Virus record (IMG/VR): IMGVR_UViG_3300005683_000013
From: an uncultured virus (IMG/VR IMGVR_UViG_3300005683_000013)
Lineage: Duplodnaviria; Heunggongvirae; Uroviricota; Caudoviricetes
Strand: one strand, 5' to 3'
DNA: 64,000 nt
Made by a program: the position numbers and the translations under genes. Each line of letters starts with the position of its first letter. Within the stretch, counting starts at the first letter, position 1. The notes under the pieces were generated by a model. It was not told the DNA's origin and did not search any database. It worked only from the letters and a program-made list of their open reading frames with translations. This document shows, in pieces, positions 28,952 through 49,942 of the stretch.

Positions 28952-29167
28952 TCACTCGTCAGTTATGTCGCATGTTCCGTAAGTCGTGATATGACACAAT
29001 CCACGCGATGACATAACAAGAATCTTTGGTGCTGGGACCATCTGATCAACTTCTGACGCATCAAGGACGACAAGAATTTCATCTTTTAGAACGATGCCAG
29101 GTCCTAACCCGTCAATACGTTCTGCAAAAATGAATTCTTTCCACACCTTCAGCAGTGATCCCCTCAT
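28952..29167 (-). CDS. SH3-like array protein
   Basis: RGSLL...VMSSRGLCHI. Confidence 0.75.
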   Translation of the reverse strand: MRGSLLKVWKEFIFAERIDGLGPGIVLKDEILVVLDASEVDQMVPAPKILVMSSRGLCHITTYGTCDITDE

Positions 29168-29412
29168 AACTGTTTAACATATACTGGACTCACGTAACCT
29201 ACACCGTGTGACGTCAATACCTTAATATAAACATCATCAAAATTAAGCGAACCCAAACCCAACATGACTTCGTCAATCCCGATGTGGCACAAGATTGTCA
29301 TTGAATTGTGGCCTTTGCTGAGTGCCCATACGATGATTGTGCCTCGGCCACCAAGGGTGTCTGCGATCAATAATTTTCTCTCGTAACATCTCGGGTTCAC
29401 CAGAATAATCAT
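29164..29412 (-). CDS. SH3-like array protein
   Basis: VLTSHGVGYV; start uncertain. Confidence 0.7.
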   Translation of the reverse strand: MIILVNPRCYERKLLIADTLGGRGTIIVWALSKGHNSMTILCHIGIDEVMLGLGSLNFDDVYIKVLTSHGVGYVSPVYVKQL

Positions 29413-29482
29413 CCTTTCGTGACATAGGGAACTTCAAAAACAATCAATCAAATTTTCTTGCAGCGATTGGAATGGCATACCT

Positions 29483-29821
29483 ATGGTTATGGCAAAGGCA
29501 AGACCACTGTTCAAAGAACTCACTGTCTCAAACTGGAAATCAAGTTCACTCCCTAACGGAAAGATGAGATTTAACGGCGAAGTGCGATATGATGTGACAT
29601 ATCGCGTTTATTCAGAAACCAAGAAAATTGCTGCTGTAATCTGGAAAGAGGATCCGAACGACACAGATTTTGTGGCGAGTGTCATCATGCCAGATTCAAC
29701 AGAAGAAATAGTGTCACGAAAGAATTTTAATGGTAAACCTGGAGCAAAAGCTTGGTGTGATAGAAAATCACAATTGTTACTAACACCAATAATTGTTGGC
29801 ACTGGTGTAAACAACGCCTAA
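29483..29821 (+). CDS. hypothetical protein on opposite strand inside left array
   Basis: 112-aa ORF filling the gap in the array. Confidence 0.65.
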   Translation: MVMAKARPLFKELTVSNWKSSSLPNGKMRFNGEVRYDVTYRVYSETKKIAAVIWKEDPNDTDFVASVIMPDSTEEIVSRKNFNGKPGAKAWCDRKSQLLLTPIIVGTGVNNA

Positions 29822-30042
29822 TCACGTTTCAATTGATCAGCTGCTATGAACCCAATACCAAACTGAGTGAGACAACGACACAAACTCAAACTGTTGACAT
29901 TGAGCAATGGTAAACAGATGACAATTGCTCTGCCATCTAGATGTCCCCATCGAGTTGAGTCGCCGTGACAATCTGTTTTCCAGATATAAGTTCTCACTGC
30001 GACGTAAAGAAGATCACCAGGAACGAACGTTGATTCTTTCAT
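29818..30042 (-). CDS. SH3-like array protein
   Basis: PGDLL...CLTQFGIGFI. Confidence 0.8.
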   Translation of the reverse strand: MKESTFVPGDLLYVAVRTYIWKTDCHGDSTRWGHLDGRAIVICLPLLNVNSLSLCRCLTQFGIGFIAADQLKRD

Positions 30043-30296
30043 ACGTCACATAGGCCGGTGTGATAAACCCATCCGACTCCTCGAGCTGTGAGACATTTTA
30101 CGTACTCTGTGTCAATGTAATCATGTTCAGTCGCAATGATCAAAACACACTCAGTTTGGTCTTCTATTCTGTAAAGACTGTCATAAATAAACAACTCACC
30201 ATCCATCACGTAAGCTTCCCAAACAGTCGTGTTATACCCGAGTTGTAACAATCGACCATGTTGGAACGCGGGTTTTTGGCATGAAATCTTTGACAT
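30039..30296 (-). CDS. SH3-like array protein
   Basis: HGRLL...CLTARGVGWV; start uncertain. Confidence 0.75.
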   Translation of the reverse strand: MSKISCQKPAFQHGRLLQLGYNTTVWEAYVMDGELFIYDSLYRIEDQTECVLIIATEHDYIDTEYVKCLTARGVGWVYHTGLCDV

Positions 30297-30507
30297 CGAT
30301 CCATCCGATGCCATACTGAGTGATGCAGAGTTCATAGTTTTCATCATCGCCAAGAAATTTGTTCTGTTCAACAACTCGTTCACAAATTCCAAGTCTTATG
30401 ACGCAACCATGATTGGAATCATTCGATGATAACTTGCGAAACTGACCTTCGCCAATTGTTGCCCAGATCATCGTCATTGGCTCCAATTCGATAATCGCAC
30501 CTCTCAT
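30232..30507 (-). CDS. SH3-like array protein
   Basis: RGAII...CITQYGIGWI. Confidence 0.8.
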   Translation of the reverse strand: MRGAIIELEPMTMIWATIGEGQFRKLSSNDSNHGCVIRLGICERVVEQNKFLGDDENYELCITQYGIGWIDVKDFMPKTRVPTWSIVTTRV

Positions 30508-30743
30508 TTGTCTCGGCGCTCACGTTCCAACTGTTCAGAATTGATCCAACCAATACCACCTGACGTGAGCATTTTCATTTCAACAATCTCGAAATTCGTT
30601 TCAGTTTGACCCAAATAGATCAGTGCTGAATCAAACTTGGCTTTCCAACTGTTCTCCCAATATGGTCCTGGGGTGTCATAGATTGACACTGTGCTACGAA
30701 TGAAGAACAACGTGCCAGGAAGGACTGTCACTTTCGTTGACAT
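30504..30743 (-). CDS. SH3-like array protein
   Basis: PGTLF...MLTSGGIGWI. Confidence 0.8.
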   Translation of the reverse strand: MSTKVTVLPGTLFFIRSTVSIYDTPGPYWENSWKAKFDSALIYLGQTETNFEIVEMKMLTSGGIGWINSEQLERERRDK

Positions 30744-30761
30744 TGTGACGCTCCACGATTG

Positions 30762-31010
30762 TCACAGACATTTCATGTTATGAGACGGAATCCATCCAAT
30801 TCCTAATGGAGTTAACACCAAACACTGATCATAAAGAATCTTATTAACTGTTGTAACTTTGTGTTCTAAAAGAACTACGACTGTGTTGTTGGGCATCAAC
30901 TTCCTAGGAGACATGAGAACGCCGTGTTCCTCTGCCAACGTAACAGTGTTTATTGTTCGGTAAGTTGATACCGCACGAAATATTCGACCTGAAATGAACT
31001 TCTTGATCAT
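30762..31010 (-). CDS. SH3-like array protein
   Basis: SGRIF...VLTPLGIGWI. Confidence 0.8.
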   Translation of the reverse strand: MIKKFISGRIFRAVSTYRTINTVTLAEEHGVLMSPRKLMPNNTVVVLLEHKVTTVNKILYDQCLVLTPLGIGWIPSHNMKCL

Positions 31011-31201
31011 GTTTCGACCAAGTTTTCCTTGCGAACCCAGCCAATCCCAATCGATGTCAACACACAAAATTCTGATACGATCTCTTCATCGGAAATGACC
31101 AGAACGATATCGTTTGTGTTTAGATGATATTCTGTGGTGGCCCCTAATGAGTTTGGAGCCTCAGAATTAAGTAACGCCCGCTGGCAATGGTTCAACATCA
31201 A
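31007..31201 (-). CDS. SH3-like array protein (5' end may be frameshifted from ATG 31215)
   Basis: VLTSIGIGWV; close paralog of 31212..31418. Confidence 0.7.
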   Translation of the reverse strand: MMLNHCQRALLNSEAPNSLGATTEYHLNTNDIVLVISDEEIVSEFCVLTSIGIGWVRKENLVET

Positions 31202-31211
31202 TTGCCCTTGA

Positions 31212-31418
31212 TCATGTTTTGATCAAGTGTCCTAGATGGACCCAACCGACACCGATTGATGACAATACCAGAAACTCAGATTCAACTGGTTTGTTAGAAA
31301 CCACAACCACAATTTCACCACTGTTTATTTGACATTGCTCGTTATGTTTTGCTGTGAACGGTGGTTGAGAATTAAGTGACGCTCGAGAACCAACGATCAA
31401 CATCAATTGACCGAACAT
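31212..31418 (-). CDS. SH3-like array protein
   Basis: FGQLM...VLSSIGVGWV; GTGTAA-N17-TATCTT-6nt-ATG. Confidence 0.8.
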   Translation of the reverse strand: MFGQLMLIVGSRASLNSQPPFTAKHNEQCQINSGEIVVVVSNKPVESEFLVLSSIGVGWVHLGHLIKT

Positions 31419-31447
31419 GATATCAAGATACCACAAATAGAAAACAA

Positions 31448-31702
31448 TTACACATCGCTAGGTCGTTGCATCACCCTTTTAACGAGAGTGTTATCAACAA
31501 TCCACCCGACACCGTGTGCTGTCAACACATAAAGTTCATCGAGATGTTGTCCTGCAACCACCGATCTCCACGATGACAGGAAAATAACGACAGAAGACTT
31601 TTTAAAATTAGCGATCGATTTGTTGCACACACCAGAGCGTGGGAACAATGACATGCCAAGACGGCTTGTTCTCAACAAATCTCCAGCTCGATATTTTGTC
31701 AT
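31448..31702 (-). CDS. SH3-like array protein
   Basis: AGDLL...VLTAHGVGWI. Confidence 0.8.
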   Translation of the reverse strand: MTKYRAGDLLRTSRLGMSLFPRSGVCNKSIANFKKSSVVIFLSSWRSVVAGQHLDELYVLTAHGVGWIVDNTLVKRVMQRPSDV

Positions 31703-31935
31703 TCTATTATCCTAATTCGACTGAAATCAATCCATCCGATTCCCAGATGTGATATGACACAAAATTCCTGGATGCGTTTGTCTATTTCAACGACAAATAA
31801 AACATCACCAGCCTTCACGTATTGATTGTTGCGTCGAATCGTTAGACGCATACGATCATCATACAATCTCACAAATTCGCGGCCGGGCGTCAATAACGAT
31901 CCAACCTTAACGTCATCAAAGTATTCAATATTCAT
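31699..31935 (-). CDS. SH3-like array protein
   Basis: VGSLL...VISHLGIGWI. Confidence 0.8.
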   Translation of the reverse strand: MNIEYFDDVKVGSLLTPGREFVRLYDDRMRLTIRRNNQYVKAGDVLFVVEIDKRIQEFCVISHLGIGWIDFSRIRIIE

Positions 31936-32177
31936 TTGACGTCTTTTAAATCACGGTTATCAATCCATCCCACACCATGTTTGCTCAGTGTCAGCGTCAT
32001 AGTGCCGAGAGGGGCGGTATTACCTGGAACACTAATCCCAAGAATGATCGCCACGTCATTTTGTGTCAGATCACCAAACCACTCAACTCGCCTACTAACA
32101 ACACCGTCAATGTTGCCTTTCCAGACAGAAGAAACGTTAATGTATGGAGAAATAGAATTAAGGTCACCGACTTTCAT
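31932..32177 (-). CDS. SH3-like array protein
   Basis: VGDL...TLSKHGVGWI. Confidence 0.8.
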   Translation of the reverse strand: MKVGDLNSISPYINVSSVWKGNIDGVVSRRVEWFGDLTQNDVAIILGISVPGNTAPLGTMTLTLSKHGVGWIDNRDLKDVK

Positions 32178-32409
32178 TTTTTATCTTATCGACGTATTCA
32201 ATGTCAACCCACCCGCATCCCAATCGACTTAATATGAACACTTCTGTCCGGTTATCAGGACCAAAATAGTAATCAATGATAAGAATCTGCTCGCCGTCTT
32301 TGAGAAAACCGACCGTATGTTGACCACCTGCTCTGTTACGATGTGTGGCCCAACACATACATCCACAATCAACCTTGTCTACTATCGTGGATAAAACACC
32401 AGTCACCAT
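32164..32409 (-). CDS. SH3-like array protein
   Basis: ILSRLGCGWV. Confidence 0.8.
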   Translation of the reverse strand: MVTGVLSTIVDKVDCGCMCWATHRNRAGGQHTVGFLKDGEQILIIDYYFGPDNRTEVFILSRLGCGWVDIEYVDKIKNESR

Positions 32410-32654
32410 AGTTCAACCGTAAAACCACAATCATTTCCGCCGCGAATCCAACCATGACCATGAGCTGAAATGACGTGATACTCTTCGATTCGCAAACCTC
32501 TTGGCGAAAAACTAAGGTGAAAATCAGTGACAACGAGAAGCGCGTTCACTGGAAGTTTTGAGACAAGATCACCCATTGGAAAGGGACAAGACAGTAATTT
32601 AACAGGTGACCCGTCCTCTTTCGCTTCTGCTCTTAACAACATTCCTATTGTCAT
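32403..32654 (-). CDS. SH3-like array protein
   Basis: IGMLL...VKLLSCP...VISAHGHGWI. Confidence 0.8.
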   Translation of the reverse strand: MTIGMLLRAEAKEDGSPVKLLSCPFPMGDLVSKLPVNALLVVTDFHLSFSPRGLRIEEYHVISAHGHGWIRGGNDCGFTVELW

Positions 32655-32655
32655 C

Positions 32656-32901
32656 TTACGATCCTATGAATTCGTCAAACGTTTTCAACAATGTCAAACT
32701 ATCATGACGCAACCAACCAAGACCATATCGCGTCAACACACAGCAATGGTTGCTGGTGACAGGTGTGGAAATCAAGAGGGTGACTTCTTCTATTTTGATC
32801 CGTCGAAACCATGCACCAGATCGTTGAAAACCTTCCGTCGTTGGGTCAACAGAATACAACCTGACGTTGCTCTTTGCGACACGACAGAGTTGACCGATCA
32901 C
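32656..32901 (-). CDS. SH3-like array protein
   Basis: IGQLC...VLTRYGLGWL. Confidence 0.8.
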   Translation of the reverse strand: MIGQLCRVAKSNVRLYSVDPTTEGFQRSGAWFRRIKIEEVTLLISTPVTSNHCCVLTRYGLGWLRHDSLTLLKTFDEFIGS

Positions 32902-33125
32902 GATGTTCTCTTCTCTTTCAGTCGTTTAACAAGAATCCAACCAACGCCGTCACGTGACAACACATAGACCTCATCAGGACACAATGCGTCAAACCCAACA
33001 ACGATAACAATCTCGTCTGGATCGATAATCGCCGCGACCGATGATCTGATTGATTGGTGACTGATCCTATTTCCACGCCATAACGTTGTATTTTCAGTGA
33101 CATTCATCAGGTCGCCCCTGTTCAT
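32898..33125 (-). CDS. SH3-like array protein
   Basis: RGDLM...VLSRDGVGWI. Confidence 0.8.
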   Translation of the reverse strand: MNRGDLMNVTENTTLWRGNRISHQSIRSSVAAIIDPDEIVIVVGFDALCPDEVYVLSRDGVGWILVKRLKEKRTS

Positions 33126-33448
33126 GACACTTCCTCAACGTCCTGCTTTTTAATCCACCCGATCCCGGCGTGTGACAGGACAAAATATTCAACACGCTTG
33201 TATTTTTCGCCGTATTCAGTGGATGCCATTGCCAACACAACATCATGTTGCTTCATGTGTTTCACGTTTGCTTCTTCTGTTTCTTCAATAGTGTTGGGTG
33301 CCAGCAAGAACAGGAGAATTCCATCACATTTGACTTGGAACAACTCTCCGTTCATAGCTCGTTCAAATGTTTTTTCCATACAAAACCCACCCCGCGATGA
33401 AAACAGTGGAATCTTTGCTGCGTTGATATAACAAAGTTTTCCAATCAT
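33122..33448 (-). CDS. SH3-like array protein, fusion of a truncated and an intact member
   Basis: MIGKLC... then internal MNGELF (33355)...VLSHAGIGWI. Confidence 0.75.
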   Translation of the reverse strand: MIGKLCYINAAKIPLFSSRGGFCMEKTFERAMNGELFQVKCDGILLFLLAPNTIEETEEANVKHMKQHDVVLAMASTEYGEKYKRVEYFVLSHAGIGWIKKQDVEEVS

Positions 33449-33651
33449 AAGTCCTCTGTTGCCTCGCCCAGGACTCACCCACAACCCAGACCCGACATCA
33501 CATACGCCTCGTCCCAATCTGTGTCAAGGATTAACACCGTGTCATCGACTGACACTTTGCCTGTTAGAGCTCCACTTACTTCGTGTCCCGCTCTGTCATG
33601 ATAAATTGGAACGTTGTTCCACGACTTCACCCAGAACAACCTCCCAATCAC
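33445..33651 (-). pseudogene. SH3-like array member with TGA at conserved Trp
   Basis: VMSGLGCG*VLGEATEDL*; second stop overlaps next ATG. Confidence 0.75.
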
Positions 33652-33881
33652 TGATGATTTTTCAGATCGCTCCGGTGCATCCATCCTTCACCAAGTCGTG
33701 TTAACACATGACAACTGAAACTTGTTGTGTCTATCTCCGATTGTATCAGGATGACAACGTCACCACTGGACAACCAGAGTCGTGGTTCTATCGGTTTGAC
33801 AAGTTCACGATGTGACCTCACAACTCGAGCCCATCCCGACGTAATACGCAATAATGACCCTTTGCCTGCAAGACCGATCAT
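33648..33881 (-). CDS. SH3-like array protein
   Basis: KGSLL...VLTRLGEGWM. Confidence 0.8.
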   Translation of the reverse strand: MIGLAGKGSLLRITSGWARVVRSHRELVKPIEPRLWLSSGDVVILIQSEIDTTSFSCHVLTRLGEGWMHRSDLKNHQ

Positions 33882-34105
33882 GACGTTGTGATGTCCGAGA
33901 GGTGAACATAACCTTCACCAAGTCGACTGAGAACCCGACACCCGAACGGACCAGTGTATGCCGAGGACAACAACATGACAGTGTCACCCTTCTGGAGATG
34001 ACGACCTTTCCCGGTCGCCTGTCTGATAAGTGATAGAGTATTGTTGAAGAGAATGGGACGGGCGGAGACAATAACAACAATGCTTCCTGTGTCTAACTCT
34101 TCCAT
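33878..34105 (-). CDS. SH3-like array protein
   Basis: TGSIV...VLSRLGEGYV; ATGTAA-N17-TACTGT-7nt-ATG. Confidence 0.8.
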   Translation of the reverse strand: MEELDTGSIVVIVSARPILFNNTLSLIRQATGKGRHLQKGDTVMLLSSAYTGPFGCRVLSRLGEGYVHLSDITTS

Positions 34106-34118
34106 TGAGTTTACAGTA

Positions 34119-34334
34119 TCACGAAATCTCGTATTTTACATCAAACACCCACAACCACCCAACGCCATGTCGGGTTAGAACTTCATAATATTCGATATTT
34201 GATAGTCCAGTCTTTTTCCGCAGCACAACAGCAACTTCACCTCGACGCAAGTATTTGTGTTGAGGTGATTCCGTGCTGCCAGGAAATTGTTGATGAAGCA
34301 TCGAGAGGTCGACGTCAATGACAGACAAACCCAT
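34119..34334 (-). CDS. SH3-like array protein (first of left array)
   Basis: VLTRHGVGWL. Confidence 0.8.
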   Translation of the reverse strand: MGLSVIDVDLSMLHQQFPGSTESPQHKYLRRGEVAVVLRKKTGLSNIEYYEVLTRHGVGWLWVFDVKYEIS

Positions 34335-34341
34335 TTGATCT

Positions 34342-34370
34342 ATCATACCTCAATCCCGTCTCTTTTACAC
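34342..34370 (-). promoter_or_regulatory. promoter heading the left array
   Basis: GTGTAA-N17-TATGAT-7nt-ATG. Confidence 0.7.
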
Positions 34371-35257
34371 TGGATAATCAGTCTATAGACAAGGGGTCAG
34401 AGACAGAAGAAACGGTGACTCCGCCGTTAAAAACCACACAGAGTGTCACTGAGATGAATTGGCGGTCATCGAGCTTATAATGGTCTCCTCTCCCCGCTAG
34501 AAGAAGTCGACAGTTGACGCAAATTGGGTGTATGAACCTTCCAATCAGCCACGGTAAGATTGAACTGTCGACCATCATCAATCACGAACACCGGGGTTTA
34601 TCACAATGTCAAACTTTCATACACCACAACAACCAATTTGGGTCTACTTTTCCCGCCGGCAGAACTCTAAATTGTGACAATTGATCAACTTTTTGTCCCG
34701 CGCGTAAGGCACGCTCGCGGGCGACGACGCGCGATTGCGCGATCTTGTCATCACATTTTCACTCATTAATCGCGTGCCCGCGGGCGATTGCGCGCGACCT
34801 TTGCAAAGAACCGTTTTACATCACACTTGCATATCACCCACAGCGGCGAGCAAATTTAAAAAAGACTATACGTTGAGATTTACACCATCCCACACGACAA
34901 AACTCACATATCACACGAACACAAATTGTGAAAGTCCCAGGGAAGTTTCGTCACACAACTTTCAAATTTTTCTGATAAGAGTGACACACGTTGAAAACGG
35001 TCGGTGCACCCAATTTCGAACTGAATTTCTCGTGGGTTGACGAGGCTTTGTCGGATTATGACACTGACGGGACAGTCACATCCACCCTGAAGAGGACCGC
35101 ACTCACCGTTTGGTGTGGAAATGGTTGTTCTGTTCCCTGAGGTGTGATTGATAATTCTTTTATGACATATCACTGATTCAACTGTCAGATTCTTGAGAGA
35201 ATTTCTGAGGGCATCCTGAGTGAAAGATAGAAAAGTGCAAGGACAAAAAATCTTTCA

Positions 35258-35650
35258 ATGAAAAATACTGTGGAACGTTATACTTTTCTTTACATGAACG
35301 GACTGTTCGACAACATCAAAGCCAAAGCAACCCTATTGAATGATGCCATCCCAGACTTCTTTATAGACAAGGTGATGACACATCCTTTGTATCGACAACT
35401 CGCATGGATTGGCCTCGCTCCATTGTTTGTCCTCATCGTCAACATCATTGTCGGTGTCGGAATTCGGTCACCACTTCTCGCCGCGGCAATGGTTTACATG
35501 ATTCTCTGCAACGTTGTCTACCGGATTGGATGCAAGGTCGCAGTCGCACAACGTGACAAACAAACGTACGAGGAACTCAAGCTGATTGTCAACGCAATCA
35601 AGGAACGCCGTCGTCATAGTTTCAAGGGAGACGATGGATCTGTAAAATAA
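35258..35650 (+). CDS. putative two-TM membrane protein
   Basis: Two hydrophobic segments; only convincing ORF in the hub. Confidence 0.65.
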   Translation: MKNTVERYTFLYMNGLFDNIKAKATLLNDAIPDFFIDKVMTHPLYRQLAWIGLAPLFVLIVNIIVGVGIRSPLLAAAMVYMILCNVVYRIGCKVAVAQRDKQTYEELKLIVNAIKERRRHSFKGDDGSVK

Positions 35651-35914
35651 AAGTGTGTCATTGTGAATAATAATTGACAATAATTGATGTGAAGGGTAAG
35701 TAATGATATAGGATAGAACACAAGGATAACATAGCAGGAAGGGCCCGGCCATCGAGAATCTCTATCGATGGCATTAAAGGGCGGGGCAGGCCGGCGCAAA
35801 AGCCCCTTTTTTACATTCGGTAAATATCCCCACCATACCCGAAACACCGTCCATACCGATTCACCGCCCTTGCCACCGAATTCCTCACGATCCCTCTCTA
35901 TCCGCCGTCCATTC

Positions 35915-36204
35915 ACAGCGATAGGAAGTGAAACACTTCCGCCGAGGTGGTGCAACCCTGTGCACTGCCGTCAGCAACGGTTAACGGTCAGGATATAATC
36001 GAGGTCAGGATACAGTCCAGGTCGGGATGTATCCCGACCGTCTGACCGTTTGACCTCGAATTTGTCCCAACATGTGCAACCCTGTGACAGCGATAGGAAG
36101 TGAAACANNNNNNNNNNNNNNNNNNNNNNNNNNNNNNNNNNNNNNNNNNNNNNNNNNTTTCCTGAACTTCCACAGGATGTATCCAGACAGTCTGACCGTT
36201 TGAC
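35915..36204. repeat. interleaved direct repeats and hairpins around an assembly gap
   Basis: ACAGCGATAGGAAGTGAAACA at 35915 and 36087; GTGCAACCCTGTG at 35950 and 36074; GGATGTATCCnGACnGTCTGACCGTTTGAC at 36025 and 36175; Ns at 36108-36157. Confidence 0.75.
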
Positions 36205-36364
36205 TCTTCTAGAACGTTGTCTCCTCTGCGATCCTATCCTCTAGGACAGAGATGATGTGGAAGACGTTCTAGATTTTGCCCCTGCGCGAGTCTTTTTAAA
36301 AAATGCTAAGACAGGACTGAATCCTGTCTGTTATCGGAAATGATTTTGCATTTCCTTGAGCTCG

Positions 36365-36393
36365 GTGACCATTTGTCTTTTCGTTGATAGGAT
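36365..36393 (+). promoter_or_regulatory. promoter heading the right array
   Basis: GTGACC-N17-TAGGAT-6nt-ATG. Confidence 0.65.
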
Positions 36394-36399
36394 CGTATC

Positions 36400-37212: not shown

Positions 37213-37228
37213 GGCCGTTGTATCATCA

Positions 37229-37297
37229 ATGAGATCTAAACAGAACTATAAACCTGGTGACCTTGTGTCAATGTGGATCGGCGTCTTGTTTGATTGA
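37229..37297 (+). pseudogene. truncated array member
   Basis: NYKPGDLVSMW, as in 38085 NYKRGDLVTMW. Confidence 0.65.
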
Positions 37298-42526: not shown

Positions 42527-42771
42527 AAACCGAACGAAATCAACTAATCGTCCTAAAACTAACTGACAGAGAACCCTATTTGTGGGGAAAGAAATTTGAA
42601 CGTATGATACATCATCCATCGAATGAGCAAGTCGGTCCATTCAAATGTGACGATGTTTTCATTGTGATAAACCATAGAAGCATCAGAACTGGATGCACAC
42701 AAGTCTTGACTCGCCTTGGTGCGTGTTGGTTCGATTCACATTTTCAACGCTTCATTGAAGACATCGCATAA
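42517..42771 (+). CDS. SH3-like array protein
   Basis: VLTRLGACWF. Confidence 0.8.
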   Translation: MWVKTERNQLIVLKLTDREPYLWGKKFERMIHHPSNEQVGPFKCDDVFIVINHRSIRTGCTQVLTRLGACWFDSHFQRFIEDIA

Positions 42772-42807
42772 AAACCAACGTACAATACGTAGAAATTGTA
42801 AACCGTT

Positions 42808-43002
42808 ATGAAAAATCGTGGTGAATTGCTCGTTGCCAAAAATGACATACTCATTTGGAATGACACCGGTCTTGATGATTTGTTCACGTCCGAACATGTC
42901 GTTTGTCTTACAACGCATGCAACCAGCGGACTTGTCTTGCTGGGGTCCCATCAAACTTTGGAGACGACATGTCAACGAAGGTTACTCTGGAATCATTGGT
43001 GA
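42808..43002 (+). pseudogene. internally deleted array member reading out of frame into next gene
   Basis: RGELL...CLTTH then unrelated frame. Confidence 0.55.
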
Positions 43003-43102
43003 ACTTGTCGAAGACGATGTTGCATTAGTCATTGACGATCGAGTGTTGACAAGACTTGGCGTGGGTTATGTAATTGATGTTCATATGAAGTATATTAGAT
43101 AA
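42917..43102 (+). CDS. SH3-like array protein
   Basis: MQPADL...VLTRLGVGYV. Confidence 0.75.
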   Translation: MQPADLSCWGPIKLWRRHVNEGYSGIIGELVEDDVALVIDDRVLTRLGVGYVIDVHMKYIR

Positions 43103-43106
43103 TGTC

Positions 43107-43343
43107 ATGACACATGGTGATATTTTAATTGTTCAAGACATGCCGCTCAACGTGCCAGGCATAAGCGTTTGGTCTGTCATGACCGCGGGTAAAAGTCGTG
43201 ATTTACTTGGCACCATTCGTGACAATGACATTGTCATGGTGATAAAACGTGAGACTGGAAGCACCGCAGTGCAAGTAATCACAAAATTTGGATTGAGTTA
43301 CGTGCGTTTAAACATGCTTGATAACTTTACGAGCGTAATATGA
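43107..43343 (+). CDS. SH3-like array protein
   Basis: HGDIL...VITKFGLSYV. Confidence 0.8.
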   Translation: MTHGDILIVQDMPLNVPGISVWSVMTAGKSRDLLGTIRDNDIVMVIKRETGSTAVQVITKFGLSYVRLNMLDNFTSVI

Positions 43344-43361
43344 GTTTTTTACCTGGAACGT

Positions 43362-43703
43362 TGAATACCTAAAATCATTATGAACAAAAAAGTACAAATT
43401 GGCGATTTGATCATTCTTGATAAACCTAGTTCTCTAGCATGGCGTAAGATACAACATGATACTCTGTTACCTCTTTTTGAAACGCCAGAATGCAGGCTTA
43501 CAAAGGATATGAAATTCATGAGAGACGGTGAAGTTGTTCTTGTCGTCATGACAAGTTACACGCCGCAAGATAAGAATCACAATTCCTATAGAATTTTATA
43601 CGTCATCACATGCCAAGGCATTGGGTGGATCAAGAGTGAATACCTAAAATCATTATGAACAAAAAAGTACAAATTGGCGATTTGATCATTCTTGATAAAC
43701 CTA
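43362..43703 (+). repeat. 67-bp exact direct repeat (43362-43428 and 43637-43703)
   Basis: TGAATACCTAAAATCATTATGAAC...GATAAACCTA occurs twice. Confidence 0.9.
43380..43658 (+). CDS. SH3-like array protein (chimeric N-terminus)
   Basis: IGDLI...VITCQGIGWI. Confidence 0.8.
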   Translation: MNKKVQIGDLIILDKPSSLAWRKIQHDTLLPLFETPECRLTKDMKFMRDGEVVLVVMTSYTPQDKNHNSYRILYVITCQGIGWIKSEYLKSL

Positions 43704-43894
43704 TACATTTGCGTTTTGGGAAAACAGAAACAGTATGCATTGTTGTTGGGATTCAACATGTCATGTCTAGATCAAACGTGTTGTTTAAAGAAACAAGACT
43801 GTTAACGTCACTTGGTTTAGTTTGCCTCGGAGACGAGTGGAATACTCCGGTGTACGGTTATGAATATGACAGAGACGAGAATACAGCAGAATAA
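43655..43894 (+). CDS. SH3-like array protein
   Basis: IGDLI...LLTSLGL. Confidence 0.8.
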   Translation: MNKKVQIGDLIILDKPIHLRFGKTETVCIVVGIQHVMSRSNVLFKETRLLTSLGLVCLGDEWNTPVYGYEYDRDENTAE

Positions 43895-43952
43895 ATCGTA
43901 ACTCGCAGAAACAGTTTCCAGTGTCAAATGTCAGAAGAGTGTCCAGAAGGCG

Positions 43953-44222
43953 ATGAGTGCCATCTGGACTTGTGTAATTTGTGGCGCAGCGTTGTACTAT
44001 TATGACATGGCGCCTTGCGTTCAACCGGAATTTGGTCAACTTGTCAAAACAAAGTCACGAATTTGGATGAGAGATAAAGAACTTAAAAGCGGTGAACTTG
44101 CGATTGCTATCAAGACAACAAATTTTGCGAATTGGTCACAAGATACTTTGTTCAAAACTATGATCATTTCACGTTATGGTCTCGGATGGGTGGCATCTGA
44201 AGAATTGATCATTATAGCATGA
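43953..44222 (+). CDS. SH3-like array protein
   Basis: FGQLV...IISRYGLGWV; start may be 44007. Confidence 0.75.
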   Translation: MSAIWTCVICGAALYYYDMAPCVQPEFGQLVKTKSRIWMRDKELKSGELAIAIKTTNFANWSQDTLFKTMIISRYGLGWVASEELIIIA

Positions 44223-44434
44223 ATCGAGGAAAGCTCGTTCGACCACGTTTCAGCAGAGTCGCTATTTACGAATCTGACGATTTAGACTCTCAGATCGTAT
44301 TATGTCGAATTGACAAAGATCCTTGTATCATACTTGAAGAGCACAAACCTCGTAGCAGAGGTCAAGACCAATTGAAAGTTTTGACATCGTTCGGTTGTGG
44401 TTGGGTCGCAACAAATGACATGGAGTTGTTATGA
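44219..44434 (+). CDS. SH3-like array protein
   Basis: RGKLV...VLTSFGCGWV. Confidence 0.8.
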   Translation: MNRGKLVRPRFSRVAIYESDDLDSQIVLCRIDKDPCIILEEHKPRSRGQDQLKVLTSFGCGWVATNDMELL

Positions 44435-44679
44435 AAAGAGGCGACGTTGTGTCTGTCTTCAGTCTTACAAAGAGTAAGTTTCCAGTTTATGCACTAGACG
44501 ACATACACGATAGTACTGTTGCATATTACCTTAAAAATGATGACAAAGTCATCGTGTTAATTGATCAGATTCAATCTGCGATCAATGGTTACGAAGATGA
44601 AACAAAAATTTTGTCACGTTATGGGGTCGGATGGATTCGGACGGCATCGCTCTTTGAAGACGAAGACGGAGAACAATGA
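44431..44679 (+). CDS. SH3-like array protein
   Basis: RGDVV...ILSRYGVGWI. Confidence 0.8.
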   Translation: MKRGDVVSVFSLTKSKFPVYALDDIHDSTVAYYLKNDDKVIVLIDQIQSAINGYEDETKILSRYGVGWIRTASLFEDEDGEQ

Positions 44680-44885
44680 AAACTGGTGATCTTGTTCGAG
44701 TGTGGGTGATCATGAATCGGTATTCAGTGTCAAACGTACCAAGAGATAGTGAAAAAATGACTGGAATTGTTATTGCAGCGGCTTTGCACAGTCAACGGTT
44801 ATTTCAGGTTTTGACGCCGATGGGTGTTCAAGTTTCATCAGATTTAGAACTCTATTTAGGAGTGACAACACTTTATGACATCTAA
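44676..44885 (+). CDS. SH3-like array protein
   Basis: TGDLV...VLTPMGV. Confidence 0.8.
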   Translation: MKTGDLVRVWVIMNRYSVSNVPRDSEKMTGIVIAAALHSQRLFQVLTPMGVQVSSDLELYLGVTTLYDI

Positions 44886-45216
44886 AACGTTAGGAATTGT
44901 AGGCATAGGTTGGTCCGTTCTGTTGTCACATCATAGAAATTCAGACGATTACGCTCTAAAACCTCTCGACCCTGGCGATGTATACATCGTAATTGATGTT
45001 TTGCGTGACGATTTCTATGGCGACATCAGTGCAAAATTGTTAACAAAACACGGTGTCTTTTACTGTCGACGCAAGTATCGTTCACCATCTTTCTACAACT
45101 GGTATGATCAAAAAATAGACAGCCTTCAACGTTCGGAACGTGAGATACACGTAGATGACTACAATGGAACGAATAAATCGTTGGGAATGAATGTAACATA
45201 TCGTGGTAAGTTTTAA
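44875..45216 (+). CDS. SH3-like array protein with C-terminal extension
   Basis: PGDVYIVI...LLTKHGVFY. Confidence 0.75.
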   Translation: MTSKTLGIVGIGWSVLLSHHRNSDDYALKPLDPGDVYIVIDVLRDDFYGDISAKLLTKHGVFYCRRKYRSPSFYNWYDQKIDSLQRSEREIHVDDYNGTNKSLGMNVTYRGKF

Positions 45217-45430
45217 CGTTGGTGAAATTTTAACAATAACAGCTGATTTTTGTACCTCTGTTCGACATGAGTGCGAACTTTCGTACTTCGACAAAGGTGA
45301 ACTTATCATGGTTGTTGGGTATAGTATTGATACCACAGATCAAAAAACTGTTGTTGTTTTGACAAACAACGGCATAAAACAAATTTATGCAGGCATCATG
45401 CCAATGATTTCAACACAAAATTCAAAATGA
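45203..45430 (+). CDS. SH3-like array protein
   Basis: VGEIL...VLTNNGI. Confidence 0.8.
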   Translation: MVSFNVGEILTITADFCTSVRHECELSYFDKGELIMVVGYSIDTTDQKTVVVLTNNGIKQIYAGIMPMISTQNSK

Positions 45431-45651
45431 TAAACAACGGTGACTTGTGGATTTACACTGACTTGGTCAAATCCATGATTGAACTTCACCATGACAATTA
45501 TTATTCTCATAGTGAACTAAGTTATGATGATATTTTCATAGTGTTAGAACGTGTTGAACACGCTCATGGCAGTTACATCAAAATTTTGTGCAAAAGTGGT
45601 GTGTTTTTGATGTGGGCGCTTGACATCAAAAGTGCCAAACAAGTTTCATAA
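45427..45651 (+). CDS. SH3-like array protein
   Basis: NGDLW...ILCKSGV. Confidence 0.8.
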   Translation: MINNGDLWIYTDLVKSMIELHHDNYYSHSELSYDDIFIVLERVEHAHGSYIKILCKSGVFLMWALDIKSAKQVS

Positions 45652-45666
45652 TGAAAGAAAAACATC

Positions 45667-45924
45667 ATGATATCAAGCGATGTCGTCGTTCTTGAAAGAG
45701 GCGACCTTACGGTTGTCAAAACAAAACCTAATGTCGAACCTTCGAAAGTGGGTCTTTATACTCGATATAGAAAACGTTATCCGTTGTTAGAACACTACTT
45801 GTTCAATTCAGACGTGATGATAATCCTCTCTAACGAGGATGATGAACATCCTTGGATTTTGTGCAAATATGGTACATTTCAATTAGAAATTGAATATTGT
45901 GAAGGTATCATTTGGCAAGTTTAG
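45667..45924 (+). CDS. SH3-like array protein
   Basis: RGDLT...ILCKYGT. Confidence 0.8.
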   Translation: MISSDVVVLERGDLTVVKTKPNVEPSKVGLYTRYRKRYPLLEHYLFNSDVMIILSNEDDEHPWILCKYGTFQLEIEYCEGIIWQV

Positions 45925-45935
45925 CGAGGTAAAGA

Positions 45936-46184
45936 ATGCGCCCAGGATCGTTGTTTGTTGTTTCGGATGAAAAGTTCGATTTTGATAAAAACATATTTGT
46001 GTTGTGGTTGTACAATACAATTAATAGTGCAAAATTTTCTCTGAAACCCGATATGAAAGCAAAAATTGGCGACGCGATGATCGTTTTGAAACTTACACAA
46101 GAACATTGTCAAGTCTTAACTCGAACGGGATTCTACTGGATTCCGATGTCAACTGCGAGACAGTTCCTCGTGGTGGTTACGTGA
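45936..46184 (+). CDS. SH3-like array protein
   Basis: PGSLF...VLTRTGFYWI. Confidence 0.8.
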   Translation: MRPGSLFVVSDEKFDFDKNIFVLWLYNTINSAKFSLKPDMKAKIGDAMIVLKLTQEHCQVLTRTGFYWIPMSTARQFLVVVT

Positions 46185-46411
46185 GCATCATCGTTCCAAA
46201 ACTTGGTGAGTTACGTAGCCACCATAAAAAACGTGTTGGATTATATGACGTCAGTAATGGAATGCAACGTTCTTCTTTACGTCCAAACGAGTATTATATC
46301 GTGTTGCGTGAGCTTCCGGGCAGGTATCTTGTCTTGACTCGTCATGGAGTTTTTCGAATCACAAAAGCTATCGCTTCCGCATCAACAATTCTATGTGACG
46401 GTGTCGAATGA
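46181..46411 (+). CDS. SH3-like array protein
   Basis: LGELR...VLTRHGVFRI; GTGA-coupled start. Confidence 0.8.
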   Translation: MSIIVPKLGELRSHHKKRVGLYDVSNGMQRSSLRPNEYYIVLRELPGRYLVLTRHGVFRITKAIASASTILCDGVE

Positions 46412-46593
46412 AATTTTTGTCAGCGGATCGGTTACATATAGGAATGCTCGTTGAGACGATGTTTTGGGGAAAATCAATAGGAGCGTGTCTCATCGTAAGT
46501 CACGAGTTCAATGATTCCGTAGATGTCTTATCTGGCGAAGGGTTATTCACCATTGATTTTGAATTGATGGCATGTAGCATGATTGAAATTTGA
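46408..46593 (+). CDS. SH3-like array protein
   Basis: IGMLV...DVLSGEG. Confidence 0.8.
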   Translation: MKFLSADRLHIGMLVETMFWGKSIGACLIVSHEFNDSVDVLSGEGLFTIDFELMACSMIEI

Positions 46594-46823
46594 TGTCAAA
46601 AATGAATTTTAAATGTGGCCATTTGTATCTCGCGAACACAAAGATCTACCTTGGCACAGATCATTGTGTTCATACTTTGCAACGCAAAGATTTTTTCATG
46701 TACCTTTTTCGAGATGGTTGTCGTAGTTCTGACAGACATTATGTTCTGTCTAAATTCGGAACCTGTTATGTTTTTGAAAAACAACTCGTTAATGAAACGG
46801 TAAGACATGTCCCATGGATTTAA
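46593..46823 (+). CDS. SH3-like array protein
   Basis: CGHLY...VLSKFGTCYV. Confidence 0.8.
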   Translation: MSKMNFKCGHLYLANTKIYLGTDHCVHTLQRKDFFMYLFRDGCRSSDRHYVLSKFGTCYVFEKQLVNETVRHVPWI

Positions 46824-47007
46824 TTTTGTCGTCGGTTCGTTAATTCATCATAAATGGGACGTCTCACGTAAAGTAGCAATTGTGATCAATATCAATGATG
46901 ATCATGTAAAAATACTTACACAAGATGGTCTGCTACAATCAATACACACTTCGTACTATTGGTCGTTGTCAGAAATAAATTATCGTTCAAGTTTGATAAA
47001 TGATTAA
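46807..47007 (+). CDS. SH3-like array protein
   Basis: VGSLI...ILTQDG. Confidence 0.8.
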   Translation: MSHGFNFVVGSLIHHKWDVSRKVAIVININDDHVKILTQDGLLQSIHTSYYWSLSEINYRSSLIND

Positions 47008-47197
47008 AGTTGGAACGTTGTGTACGTTCATGTCGGGAATACAATACACTCTCACAGGTCATAAATCACTGAAGACGGGTGACGTTTGTTTAGAGACAAA
47101 CGTTAATATCGTCGATGATTATACTGTTGTGAACGTTCTCACAAGGGTTGGTATAATTGAACTAACACGACAATGGGACATACGTGAACTAAAATGA
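47000..47197 (+). CDS. SH3-like array protein
   Basis: VGTLC...VLTRVGI. Confidence 0.8.
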   Translation: MIKVGTLCTFMSGIQYTLTGHKSLKTGDVCLETNVNIVDDYTVVNVLTRVGIIELTRQWDIRELK

Positions 47198-47469
47198 CAA
47201 CAGAACATTGGGATGTCGATAAACTTCCAAAAATTTATGACACAGCTTATTCAATTAGAAGATTGTTCAAAAGAGGAACGTTACTCATAACTCCTGCATC
47301 ATGTGATGAATTTGGATTGCGTGTCTATAGCAATCAATTTGAAAGAGGACGTTCGAATTCATTTGTTGGAATCTTGACCAGTCACATGCCTGTCATTATT
47401 TTAGAAGATGATGGTAGCTGTAGCCCGCGTGTGCTATGCAAGTTTGGATTGTGTTACATTGACATATAA
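47194..47469 (+). CDS. SH3-like array protein
   Basis: RGTLL...VLCKFGLCYI. Confidence 0.8.
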   Translation: MTTEHWDVDKLPKIYDTAYSIRRLFKRGTLLITPASCDEFGLRVYSNQFERGRSNSFVGILTSHMPVIILEDDGSCSPRVLCKFGLCYIDI

Positions 47470-47480
47470 GGACAATCACA

Positions 47481-47768
47481 ATGAAAAATGAAGACACGTT
47501 GTTAGCTGACTCGTTGTTGGGGACTGTCACCTTGGTACCTATTGTAATCGCTGTCGCACTTGCTGTTGCAATTATGCTAAGTTCATGTTTTGATGACACT
47601 GCTTTGCTACAATACAGAGTAGAGCGACAGAAAATGTTGCAATGCATCAAACTCCCAGAAGACCATGATCAAAAGTTAAGTTTCATTCATTCGTTGAGAA
47701 CATCGAACTTCATCACAAATGACGAAGTCATCTACCTGTTGATGCCACGAACTGATTGCGTAAAATGA
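47481..47768 (+). CDS. single-TM hypothetical protein inside array
   Basis: LLGTVTLVPIVIAVALAVAIML; AAGGA RBS. Confidence 0.6.
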   Translation: MKNEDTLLADSLLGTVTLVPIVIAVALAVAIMLSSCFDDTALLQYRVERQKMLQCIKLPEDHDQKLSFIHSLRTSNFITNDEVIYLLMPRTDCVK

Positions 47769-48121
47769 CAGAAACTGACATGTATGCAGCGGTTTTTGAC
47801 ACCATCTGCACCGCCATAGTGAATTTGTTCACAACGAAGTCTCGCAAGAAAAGATTCAATGATAAAATCATATCAGTTGCCAAAGCAAACGTTGGTAAGT
47901 TTGCAAGAATCAAATCAGACAGTTTAGCTTGTCGTGACCTAACTTCAAATCTCAAATTTCGTGCACACATTGATCACATTTTCTTGCAAGGTGGCGACAA
48001 TTGTTTGATTCTTGATGTAACTTTTGAAAAGACTGAAGAGTTTGTGATCCCACAATATAAAATTCTTACGTCGATAGGTGAATTTTACATCTGGGAATAT
48101 AACATTGTCATCGATAATTGA
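47765..48121 (+). CDS. SH3-like array protein with N-terminal helical extension
   Basis: VGKFA...YKILTSIGEFYI. Confidence 0.75.
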   Translation: MTETDMYAAVFDTICTAIVNLFTTKSRKKRFNDKIISVAKANVGKFARIKSDSLACRDLTSNLKFRAHIDHIFLQGGDNCLILDVTFEKTEEFVIPQYKILTSIGEFYIWEYNIVIDN

Positions 48122-48152
48122 TTGTCTAAGCGTTGCTTTTTACGTGTCGTTA

Positions 48153-48479
48153 ATGATCGTACCGATCATCATCCCGTTATTCGTATTTATGTTTTTAACT
48201 CACAATGTTGATTTGAAAAATTTGACGATTGAAGTCAAAACAAAAAATCGCATAGGTCAAATTATCGCTATTAAAGATAACGCAATTTTGCACTCAACTG
48301 GCATATCACGCTATCGTAATTCAAACGAAAGCGTTGCAATCATATGCGATGTTGAATTTTCTTACGATATAGATCATTGTATTTGTGGTGTCACATACAA
48401 GATCTTAACGTCAAACGGAGTTCACTGGTGTGGATCTTACAATGAAGATCTTGACAGCAAACGTAGTCCATTAGGTTGA
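48153..48479 (+). CDS. TM-anchored SH3-like array protein
   Basis: IVPIIIPLFVFMFL then IGQII...YKILTSNGVHW; start uncertain. Confidence 0.7.
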   Translation: MIVPIIIPLFVFMFLTHNVDLKNLTIEVKTKNRIGQIIAIKDNAILHSTGISRYRNSNESVAIICDVEFSYDIDHCICGVTYKILTSNGVHWCGSYNEDLDSKRSPLG

Positions 48480-48597
48480 GTCTTGCACAACCAAACTGTT
48501 CCTTCACTCTTGACACCCTCAGAATATTCTTTATGTCTAAAGCAGGTTTCCATATGTCAAAAAATAATGATTTACCTAAGGGCACACAGCACAAGTC

Positions 48598-48834
48598 ATG
48601 AAATCAATGAGAAAATACAAGGGTCATCTGGCAACAACGTGTCAATCAAATTCAATACGTGTGTATCCTTATACGATGGGTTCTAGAAGCCAAAAAGCAA
48701 ATGTTCTTGGTGATAATGAAGTGTTGTTGTTCATACAGGGAACACGCCAAAGTCAGTTTGTCATGCTAACTCGATTTGGAATTAGATATGTTTCATCAAA
48801 TGACTTTGCTTTTCTTCGATGGATAACTTGTTAA
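48598..48834 (+). CDS. SH3-like array protein
   Basis: KGHLA...MLTRFGIRYV. Confidence 0.8.
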   Translation: MKSMRKYKGHLATTCQSNSIRVYPYTMGSRSQKANVLGDNEVLLFIQGTRQSQFVMLTRFGIRYVSSNDFAFLRWITC

Positions 48835-48839
48835 ACAAA

Positions 48840-49118
48840 ATGACTCACTCAGATTACGTTTCACAAATCAGGATCGTCATTAGCACGTTCCAAACAATAC
48901 CCAGATCACCAAAATCACTTATCAAAAATGACATAATAATCGTGTTATCTATCACATCAAAATTTGAAGCCAATGTGCTGACTCGCTTTGGTCCAAAGCA
49001 AATAACGTATTATGCATTACACTACATGACAATGAGTCAAGATAACAATGTGAAATATTCTCACGATAAATGGTATGATGCATTTGATGGAAATTGGCGC
49101 GACGTACACAACGTTTAA
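48840..49118 (+). CDS. SH3-like array protein
   Basis: NDIIIVL...VLTRFGP. Confidence 0.7.
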   Translation: MTHSDYVSQIRIVISTFQTIPRSPKSLIKNDIIIVLSITSKFEANVLTRFGPKQITYYALHYMTMSQDNNVKYSHDKWYDAFDGNWRDVHNV

Positions 49119-49329
49119 GTCACGATGTAGTGTTTGGCACAGTCGTTTTCTCGGTCAAGATGGAAACATAGAACACGATTTTTTGTTTAAAAACGATCTA
49201 ATGTTCGTTGTGAACATTGTAGATTGTGAAGACGAACATGATTTTACAGTTGACATGAATATTGTTCAAGTGTTGACACGACACGGTGTTAGATACATAC
49301 ATGATGAATATGATGTGAAAAAAGTCTAA
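49075..49329 (+). CDS. SH3-like array protein
   Basis: IGATY...VLTRHGVRYI. Confidence 0.8.
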   Translation: MMHLMEIGATYTTFKSRCSVWHSRFLGQDGNIEHDFLFKNDLMFVVNIVDCEDEHDFTVDMNIVQVLTRHGVRYIHDEYDVKKV

Positions 49330-49610
49330 TGTCAAATCAAGATAAAAACTACCCTAAAATTGGCACGTTGTGTGAACCGAAATGGCAAATCAATTGCTGG
49401 AATTTGTTAGATTACGCAAAACCTGACAACACCAGACAACAATCAGAATACATAAGAGAGCTCGATGCTTTTATAGTGTTGTCTGAACAAATTCGAACGT
49501 GGGAAGGTGATGTTTCGTTCATGATCTTAACAAAGAATGGAATCAAATACATAAACAGACTTTACATGAATCCAATCAACGATCATATCTCCAAATTAAG
49601 TGAGCCATAG
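49329..49610 (+). CDS. SH3-like array protein
   Basis: IGTLC...ILTKNGIKYI. Confidence 0.8.
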   Translation: MSNQDKNYPKIGTLCEPKWQINCWNLLDYAKPDNTRQQSEYIRELDAFIVLSEQIRTWEGDVSFMILTKNGIKYINRLYMNPINDHISKLSEP

Positions 49611-49619
49611 TTATGTTCT

Positions 49620-49853
49620 ATGGCAGTCTATCTTGGTCAGCTGTGGAAAAGCAACGACACGTTATGGGTTTGGGAGAACGTTGACATAGAAAAAACGTTT
49701 GTCATCCCGCCAAACGAGATGTTTTGTGTCGTTCGACTTCACAAGGACAAAAACGATTGTCATAACATAGCGACGATATTGACGATCAATCACGGACGTT
49801 GGATGACAACTTTCAGCACAATCACCCAAAAATGTGATATGGTTGTGCAATGA
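49620..49853 (+). CDS. SH3-like array protein
   Basis: LGQLW...ILTINHG. Confidence 0.75.
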   Translation: MAVYLGQLWKSNDTLWVWENVDIEKTFVIPPNEMFCVVRLHKDKNDCHNIATILTINHGRWMTTFSTITQKCDMVVQ

Positions 49854-49942
49854 AGCGAAAGTTTTGTCCAGCTCAAGTTGTGACGGTGAAGAAAGGCACA
49901 ACGTATTTAACGTCATTGTCAAAAACGTTGACTGATTGTTGA
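49850..49942 (+). pseudogene. probable truncated last array member next to TnpB element
   Basis: ATGA-coupled MKRKFCPAQVVTVKK, stops after 30 aa. Confidence 0.45.

Follow-up and report, generated by a model that had tools for sequence, protein, structure and literature searches.

In the Viral AlphaFold Database, the largest, the fourth largest and the fifth largest of the structure clusters that are specific to bacterial viruses are SH3/Tudor-like and comprise about 1.3% of the bacterial-virus cluster proteins (PMC12487901). Three early proteins of phage T4, GoF, MotB.1 as well as Frd.2, have been reported as a divergent family with an 'LSm-like fold', a five-stranded barrel of SH3 topology whose function is unknown (Kim et al. 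2025, PMC12152347). Bacillus phage G has been reported to encode ~35 copies of a zinc ribbon, an expansion that was termed 'unprecedented' (Iyer et al. 2021, PMC7824862). The present study concerns a stretch of DNA of 64,000 nucleotides (nt) from an uncultured virus of the Caudoviricetes (IMG/VR record IMGVR_UViG_3300005683_000013), here called the window, in which two divergent gene arrays encode ~72 small proteins with a predicted SH3-type β-barrel. As in the expansion reported for phage G, one small domain has been amplified in a large phage, but here the domain is the SH3-type barrel and the copies are about twice as many (PMC7824862).

The members of the arrays belong to the same fold class as the SH3/Tudor-like orphans of the Viral AlphaFold Database, which likewise have no known function; the passages of that work that deal with fold clusters mention neither tandem arrays nor dozens of copies per genome (PMC12487901). 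The T4 proteins are described as three dispersed copies of ~120-140 amino acids (aa) with an extra C-terminal domain, whereas we find ~72 arrayed single-domain copies (PMC12152347). Alignment by hhalign of our long-form and short-form families (alignments A1 and A2) with GoF, and of A1 with MotB.1, gave probabilities of 0.5%, 0.2% and 0.2%, respectively, values that still allow for remote homology as the T4 side consisted of a single sequence. With bacterial SH3b domains the members have the predicted fold and a C-terminal G-x-G-W-[IV] strand in common. However, SH3b domains usually occur as accessory parts of secreted enzymes that act on the cell wall or of surface proteins, whereas the array members stand alone, without signal peptide or catalytic partner, and are arrayed by the dozen. 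Engineered binders on SH3 scaffolds (Fyn-SH3 'fynomers', Sso7d-type) also use one small barrel that derives its specificity from variable loops and surface strands; they are laboratory libraries and their binding is proven, whereas for the array members we infer it. A preliminary description of this DNA had stated that no system of this kind was described. For the fold class this was too strong in view of the two reports on phage barrels (PMC12487901, PMC12152347), but our literature searches found no description of arrays on this scale. The main text of the HIDEN-SEQ preprint (10.1101/2025.11.20.689424) has no mention of SH3, barrels, paralogs or tandem genes. SH3/Tudor-like phage orphans had already been reported; what appears to be new is the scale of the arrays, with ~72 copies in one genome.

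Six-frame translation of the window gave 776 open reading frames (ORFs) of at least 30 aa. A regular expression for the C-terminal motif matched 30 of them, 18 on the minus and 12 on the plus strand; all lay within the region for which two divergent arrays of stand-alone mini-proteins had been proposed and had the orientation expected there. An iterative hidden Markov model (HMM) search seeded from these matches converged at 57 ORFs, none of them outside the region and none on the wrong strand, whose ORFs served as built-in decoys. Short ORFs at 36.8-41 kilobases (kb) escaped this first, long-form HMM; 17 of them were aligned separately to give alignment A2, and the short-form HMM built from it detected 21 ORFs at E<0.01, including one outside the arrays (Table 1). 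A pooled broader profile did not recruit the short forms. The union of both HMMs inside the arrays amounts to 72 ORFs at E<0.01, of which 20 belong to the minus-strand array (29164-34346) and 52 to the plus-strand array (36834-49610); together they occupy ~18 kb, a share of 28% of the window. Thus, two divergent, strand-pure arrays are indeed present. The earlier description had counted ~75 genes (~21 minus, ~55 plus), and its genes at the array ends proved weak or were missed; at E<1 the number rises to 75, two of which are spurious (one nested ORF and one frameshift partner). Four or five of the copies persist as remnants or carry a frameshift. Neighboring genes are tightly packed: start and stop overlap by 4 nt at 28 of 70 junctions if in-frame internal starts are allowed, and at 20 of 70 with longest-ORF starts, in agreement with the coupling suggested before. 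Some form of overlap was found at 46 of 70 junctions and a gap of at most 30 nt at 61 of 70, and the two packed arrays probably represent operons.

All members are single-domain proteins of 54-133 aa, with a median length of 81 aa in the long form and 63 aa in the short form. Per-column entropy of the 54 long members confirmed a conserved scaffold with variable segments. Its low-entropy columns comprise a G (45/49) and an L at the N-terminus, an L-W in strand 2, a D that precedes a hydrophobic run and, C-terminally, V-L-T, an invariant G (54/54), G-W-I and a last L; nearly every column outside this scaffold has an entropy of 3.3-4.0 bits. The median isoelectric point (pI) of the members is 6.6, with values below 6 in 23 of 72 and above 9.5 in 5 of 72, and net charges extend from -7 to +8. 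Signal peptides are generally lacking, as had been noted before, and a membrane-like hydrophobic segment occurs in only 1 of 72 members.

Two members, one per form, were modeled with AlphaFold2. The long-form member (32898-33125, alignment A1) was predicted as an all-β protein with a predicted local distance difference test (pLDDT) score of 90.0 and a predicted template modeling score (pTM) of 0.77. In a Foldseek search of the PDB its best matches were the Abl/Abl2 SH3 and NlpC SH3b domains at E ~4.5e-3, and matches in BFVD comprised SH3b-containing lysins and small uncharacterized phage proteins. An aligner independent of Foldseek placed the phiSM101 endolysin first, superimposing 63 aa on its SH3b domain at Z 9.0 and a root-mean-square deviation (rmsd) of 2.0, followed by LytB, NlpC1 SH3b and the SH3 domains of plectin and Csk; among 215 chains at Z>=5, SH3 and SH3b domains predominate. 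The short-form member (37481-37663, alignment A2; pLDDT 89.4) matched the Tudor domain of TDRD3 best, with Z 9.8, rmsd 1.1 over 54 aa and template modeling (TM) scores of 0.78/0.85, and its likeness to Tudor domains, whose 'royal family' recognizes methyl-lysine or methyl-arginine through an aromatic cage, is one of backbone similarity as expressed by Z, rmsd and TM. Its further neighbors include a complex of PWWP with single-stranded DNA (PWWP-ssDNA; Z 9.3), the PSHCP Tudor domain (Z 8.4) and NusG KOW (Z 7.5). The alignments of both forms were linked by hhalign with 89.7% probability (E 1.9e-6), the short form lacking the long loop after the first strands. Hence, neither differing folds nor a missing HMM-HMM link between the forms was found. 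The models support the assignment of both forms to SH3-type small β-barrels, as had been proposed from the spacing of conserved residues.

A profile search of 1.84 billion representatives returned 205 proteins at E<=1e-3, almost all of them stand-alone and 63-108 aa long; two or three long proteins among them are evident false positives. These relatives are either not annotated or labeled 'hypothetical protein'. None of 13 window members matched Pfam or PHROGs at E<=0.01, and 20 window members and six relatives were without match in NCBIfam and PADLOC, save one 16-bit SH3 match on a relative. Among 150 relatives, eight had matches of the SH3 clan below threshold (SH3_3, three; SH3_6, three; SH3_2, two), the best scores of 19.3-19.8 for SH3_3 (PF08239) and 16.5-19.0 for SH3_6 (PF12913) staying below the Pfam gathering threshold of 27 bits. 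A sequence-profile search of the PDB gave nothing under E 0.03, and Abl SH3 appeared at a non-significant E of 0.4-1.6. Neighbors in the ESM Atlas were viral clusters without names, one of 30 being SH3b_T; a PSHCP cluster at 0.87 is a lead only. Longer relatives fused to a catalytic or structural domain were not found in a search that its own tool rates as weak. The family belongs to no curated SH3b family, and none of the curated cut-offs of Pfam, PHROGs, NCBIfam and PADLOC was reached. We interpret it as a branch of the SH3 class that is highly divergent and uncurated and that is nearest to bacterial SH3b by its shape and its G-x-G-W-[IV] strand.

The closest pair of paralogs in the window is 58% identical and the median identity to the best paralog is 32%. 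For comparison, we considered 29 ortholog-like pairs, each consisting of a window member and a protein from elsewhere that is 57-97% identical to it. Within these pairs identity is 92% in scaffold columns and 76% in variable columns, compared with 40% and 9% between paralogs. Since variable columns are so much better conserved between orthologs than between paralogs, the loops are fixed and kept in each paralog and the repertoire is old. The alignments thus indicate an old repertoire under paralog-specific constraint and no continuing hypervariation, and the term 'hypervariable loops', used in the preliminary description, is misleading. Neither do we see signs of a diversity-generating retroelement, as no reverse transcriptase was found in a Pfam scan of 58 flanking ORFs and the closest paralogs are only 58% identical, although a search for template and variable repeats at the DNA level was not made.

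What varies between strains is the presence or absence of genes. A strain that is at least 99% alike (run X2) lacks ~1.8 kb (41434-43247) as well as 47190-47760; the member 47194-47469 and the ORF 47481-47768 are absent from it. Numerous skips of the size of a gene are seen in the related strains of runs X8 and X9. The stretch 43661-43889 is skipped almost exactly by related strains. In an analysis of 15 listed joints and two from the piece table, 13 of 30 joint ends fell within 15 nt of a gene boundary compared with 5.7 +/- 2.2 expected (P ~6e-4). A similar behavior is reported for the hyperplastic regions of T4-type phages, where non-essential small genes are gained, lost or replaced singly and modular shuffling is driven by PeSL cassettes, a promoter plus a stem-loop between genes (Arbiol et al. 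2010, PMC2839356). In the arrays, however, the numerous overlaps and short gaps at the junctions leave no room for such cassettes, and any exchange would have to make use of the conserved ends of the genes. Both arrays are spanned by contigs that come from two metatranscriptome libraries, with the bins 46675-49342 uncovered, a gap that says nothing on expression.

The family is not confined to the window. In a blastp comparison with the window ORFs, nine relatives were at least 95% identical, 18 were 70-95%, 11 were 50-70% and 76 were below 50% identical, and 36 had no match. Proteins 57-97% identical to array members were found on contigs of up to 299,776 base pairs, and since many paralogs have such counterparts in related phages, the expansion is not a recent private burst. 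A second array occurs on the huge-phage contig G001 of IMG/VR (also L007; 75 kb, estimated completeness 20%), where 24 of 692 ORFs are members, all on one strand within ~18 kb, with RNA ligase genes inside and beside the array (L012:12182-13195 and L013:1265-2449). With 72 members in ~18 kb of the window and 24 on this fragment, the family represents a lineage-specific expansion of a small domain. Outside the family G001 and the window have one small ORF in common; since they share almost nothing else, the array architecture recurs. The nearest relatives of window members are in other genomes in 32 cases and in the window itself in 29; for G001 members these numbers are 12 and 5. As the nearest relatives are found elsewhere about as often as within the window, the repertoire is common to a wider group of uncultivated phages. 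Beyond G001 no further array was found in the IMG/VR, metagenome and genome scans that were made: the member 42230-42526 found nothing by tblastn against GenBank phages or in an IMG/VR scan, IMG/VR scans with the exact motif VLTRFGVGW and with protein P0027 gave nothing, and the motif of alignment A3 retrieved G001 alone. A GroEL scan of IMG/VR led to three distant loci (L001-L003), all of them without family members, and locus L006/G002 carries a single weak and partial member. Two candidates were rejected: L004, from the metagenome scan, carries proteins identical to those of the window and so adds no independent evidence, and L005, from the genome scan, has a 25-residue match and no HMM match.

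We propose that the members are cytoplasmic binding modules, each with its own target, that serve host takeover or counter-defence, a reading to which we give an even chance. The scaffold residues shared by the members would build the barrel, and each copy would owe its own binding surface to the parts that differ by paralog, namely the first long loop, which the short form lacks, the second loop and those strand faces that are exposed. The cytoplasmic partner would then differ from copy to copy and most likely be a protein of the host, and its recognition would act in host takeover or counter-defence. Recombination near gene boundaries would add, remove or swap whole genes and thereby adjust the repertoire between strains. 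The acidic-to-basic spread of the members, in both pI (<6 to >9.5) and charge, fits many partners better than one nucleic-acid ligand. In both phages the arrays lie in a neighborhood of the accessory or conflict type, with HAD_SAK_2, NUDIX, cREC_REC, a sigma factor, a methyltransferase and tRNAs in the window and RNA ligases in G001. Although charge spread and neighborhood fit the idea that the members bind host targets in defence or takeover, they do not constitute evidence for such binding. Going further, the arrays could constitute a heritable 'binder repertoire', the phage counterpart of a bacterial defence island, in which each scaffold would neutralize or redirect a different defence protein, toxin or core factor and whole genes would be swapped between phages at their conserved ends so that the set suits the hosts of a strain. 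We regard this extended version as rather unlikely.

Several observations weigh against binding modules with individual targets. Conserved orthologs and the lack of recent duplicates, with 58% identity in the best pair, speak against an arms race that is currently fast. The enrichment of strain joints at gene boundaries rests on the listed joints, many of which may be replacements and not deletions. Contigs from RNA libraries may stem from DNA that was carried over, and they reveal neither the strand nor the level of expression, so that transcription is not proved. The Z scores of 9-10 for barrels of 60-75 residues are only moderately above the background of 7-8 stated for the aligner, and the Foldseek E-values (3e-3 to 4.5e-3) are weak. 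Moreover, fold similarity is uninformative on function. Finally, some structural neighbors of the short form, namely the PSHCP, NusG KOW and PWWP-ssDNA structures mentioned above, bind RNA or DNA. These neighbors are the main support for the chief alternative, according to which the members are RNA- or DNA-binding regulators or chaperones of LSm/Hfq-, Tudor/PSHCP- or KOW-like type whose action is directed at transcripts, at tRNAs or at the machinery of transcription and not at diverse host proteins. The PSHCP lead from the ESM Atlas points in the same direction, and RNA-repair genes and the tRNA cluster adjoin the arrays or lie within them. A mutant of T4 GoF has been reported to stabilize an mRNA, but wild-type GoF and MotB.1 are reported to be without RNA effect (PMC12152347). 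Furthermore, the members are not uniformly basic, as is evident from their median pI and the 23 acidic members compared with five strongly basic ones, and an identity of ~9% between paralogs at surface positions is hard to square with one common nucleic-acid ligand. Overall, we consider a general role in nucleic acid binding unlikely.

The remnants and the frameshifted copy, together with the gene-sized differences between near-identical strains, would also agree with arrays that are largely dispensable ORFan DNA, produced by repeated duplication in a hyperplastic region and made up of copies without individual functions. The comparable small barrel genes of T4 are reported to be non-essential in the laboratory (PMC12152347). 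However, such DNA would hardly be expected to keep intact frames and tight coupling over ~18 kb, to lack recent duplicates and to preserve orthologs at 57-97% identity, with the non-scaffold columns at 76% compared with 9% in paralogs. In addition, arrays recur in the phage of G001, which apart from them has hardly anything in common with the window. We therefore judge this explanation very unlikely. SH3-like barrels are common in structural and cell-wall-binding contexts of phages, jumbo phages have paralog families of packaged proteins, and the BFVD and PDB neighbors of the members include an endolysin and NlpC/P60 SH3b domains. Thus, the members might be virion-associated or assembly proteins such as packaged internal proteins or decoration modules. 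Against this, no structural genes were seen across the 64-kb neighborhood, export signals are absent from the members, and these are encoded in divergent operons together with RNA-repair and NUDIX genes; the lack of a catalytic or structural domain fusion among longer proteins adds weak evidence. We likewise judge a role in the virion very unlikely.

The features of the locus are compiled in Table 1. The central region between the arrays presumably carries control elements, although promoter-like matches (7 compared with 4.6 expected from shuffled sequences) and terminator-like matches (4 compared with 2.7) are near expectation. In this region, where the GC skew flips its sign, direct repeats at 35915-36204 with spacings of 150 and 172 nt lie on either side of a masked N run (36108-36157); they could be an origin-like or regulatory repeat. 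At these repeats, related strains have 98 letters where the window shows a 71-base skip. The G+C content declines steadily from ~0.45 to 0.36 toward the distal end of the plus array (36000-50000) and is steady at 0.42-0.46 in the minus array. A local duplication is apparent at 43364-43700, where the members 43380-43658 and 43655-43894 share an almost identical 20 nt upstream and ~16 N-terminal residues and then diverge. Outside the arrays, the plus-strand ORF 25641-25877 has a weak family likeness (long-form E 0.56) and may be a dispersed member.

Table 1. Coordinates of the two arrays and of features within and around them (positions in the window)
Feature	Position	Strand	Remarks
Minus-strand array	28952..34346	-	20 long-form members at E<0.01 (29164-34346) and a weak terminal one, 28952-29167, E 0.24
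Gap in minus array, 405 nt	29413-29817		Unrelated plus-strand ORF inside
Central divergent region	34347..36399	.	130-aa hydrophobic ORF 35258-35650 (+), direct repeats, masked N run, GC-skew sign change
HAD_SAK_2 (RNA-repair-type HAD) gene	36400..36837	+	Heads plus operon; 3' end overlaps start of first member
Proximal plus array	36834..41034	+	Mostly short-form (Tudor-like), 54-93 aa; few long-form among them: 38872, 39129, 39911, 40084
NUDIX hydrolase gene	41019..41390	+	Non-member embedded in plus array
Distal plus array	41511..49853	+	Mostly long-form; final HMM match ends at 49610
End of distal plus array	49620-49853	+	No match to either HMM; resemblance to a degenerate member is by eye only
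Modeled long-form member, 75 aa	32898..33125	-	SH3/SH3b-like barrel (predicted)
Modeled short-form member, 60 aa	37481..37663	+	Tudor-like minimal SH3 barrel (predicted)
Member with N-terminal membrane-like segment before the barrel, 133 aa	48078..48479	+	Sole such member; Kyte-Doolittle 2.61
Non-family 95-aa ORF with hydrophobic segment	47481..47768	+	Inside array
Apparent frameshifted member	42808..43102	+	N-terminal half 42808-43002, C-terminal half 42818-43102 in another frame
Truncated remnant, 49 aa	36985..37134	+	70% identity over 40 aa to member 37862-38065
Further remnants	38408-38509; 33475-33684		33 aa; last strand missing, respectively
IS605-type OrfB/TnpB gene	49980..51179	+	PHROG 506, E 2e-80; directly beyond distal end of plus array; masked N run inside
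Possible dispersed short-form member, 61 aa	10298..10483	-	Short-form E 8e-4; outside arrays

Taken as a whole, the 64-kb window resembles a region of a very large phage that is devoted to replication, repair and accessory genes. Its further products include GroEL, a sigma-70-type factor, an N6/N4 DNA methyltransferase, UvdE, a 5'-3' exonuclease and AAA ATPases. RNA-repair-type domains are represented by cREC_REC and HAD_SAK_2 (20847-21224 and 36400-36837); despite these two RNA-repair-associated domains, the window contains no RNA ligase. ARAGORN detected nine tRNA genes, eight of them clustered at 26791-28522 and one at 14083-14156. The tRNAs mostly serve codons ending in A or T (Ile-tat, Leu-taa twice, Asn-att, Pro-tgg, Arg-tct, Tyr-gta and Ser-tga); the call at 27716-27790 has a four-base anticodon according to ARAGORN and is not listed as a tRNA by Rfam. 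A protein with a peptide-chain release factor (PCRF) domain and a match to a histidyl-tRNA synthetase as labeled in PHROGs are encoded at 60116-60730 and 61701-62282, respectively. Translation-related genes of these kinds are frequent in huge phages. Window positions 1-14000 hold a long succession of minus-strand ORFs of small or medium size, and none of the first 21 ORFs scanned had a Pfam match. The GroEL of the window is at most 47% identical to proteins of GenBank phages, and a megablast search of 51400-58900 against these phages revealed no close relative.

With a single genome that contains ~72 natural variants of the same scaffold, many of them with conserved orthologs in related phages and with presence or absence at the strain level, the locus offers a compact test bed. 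SH3/Tudor-like barrels are reportedly the commonest phage-specific fold, to which the reports cited here assign no function in their passages on these proteins (PMC12487901, PMC12152347), and the copy number found here is about twice that of the expansion that the 2021 survey of jumbo phages termed unprecedented (PMC7824862). Screening one array in pooled form, by pull-down or for anti-defence activity, could yield targets for dozens of dark-matter proteins at once. If the members do form a repertoire of binders, every one of them, each paralog being conserved, would amount to a ready-made inhibitor that occurs naturally and is directed at one specific bacterial protein. In conclusion, the locus could show whether huge phages use domain repertoires in the way that cells use defence islands.

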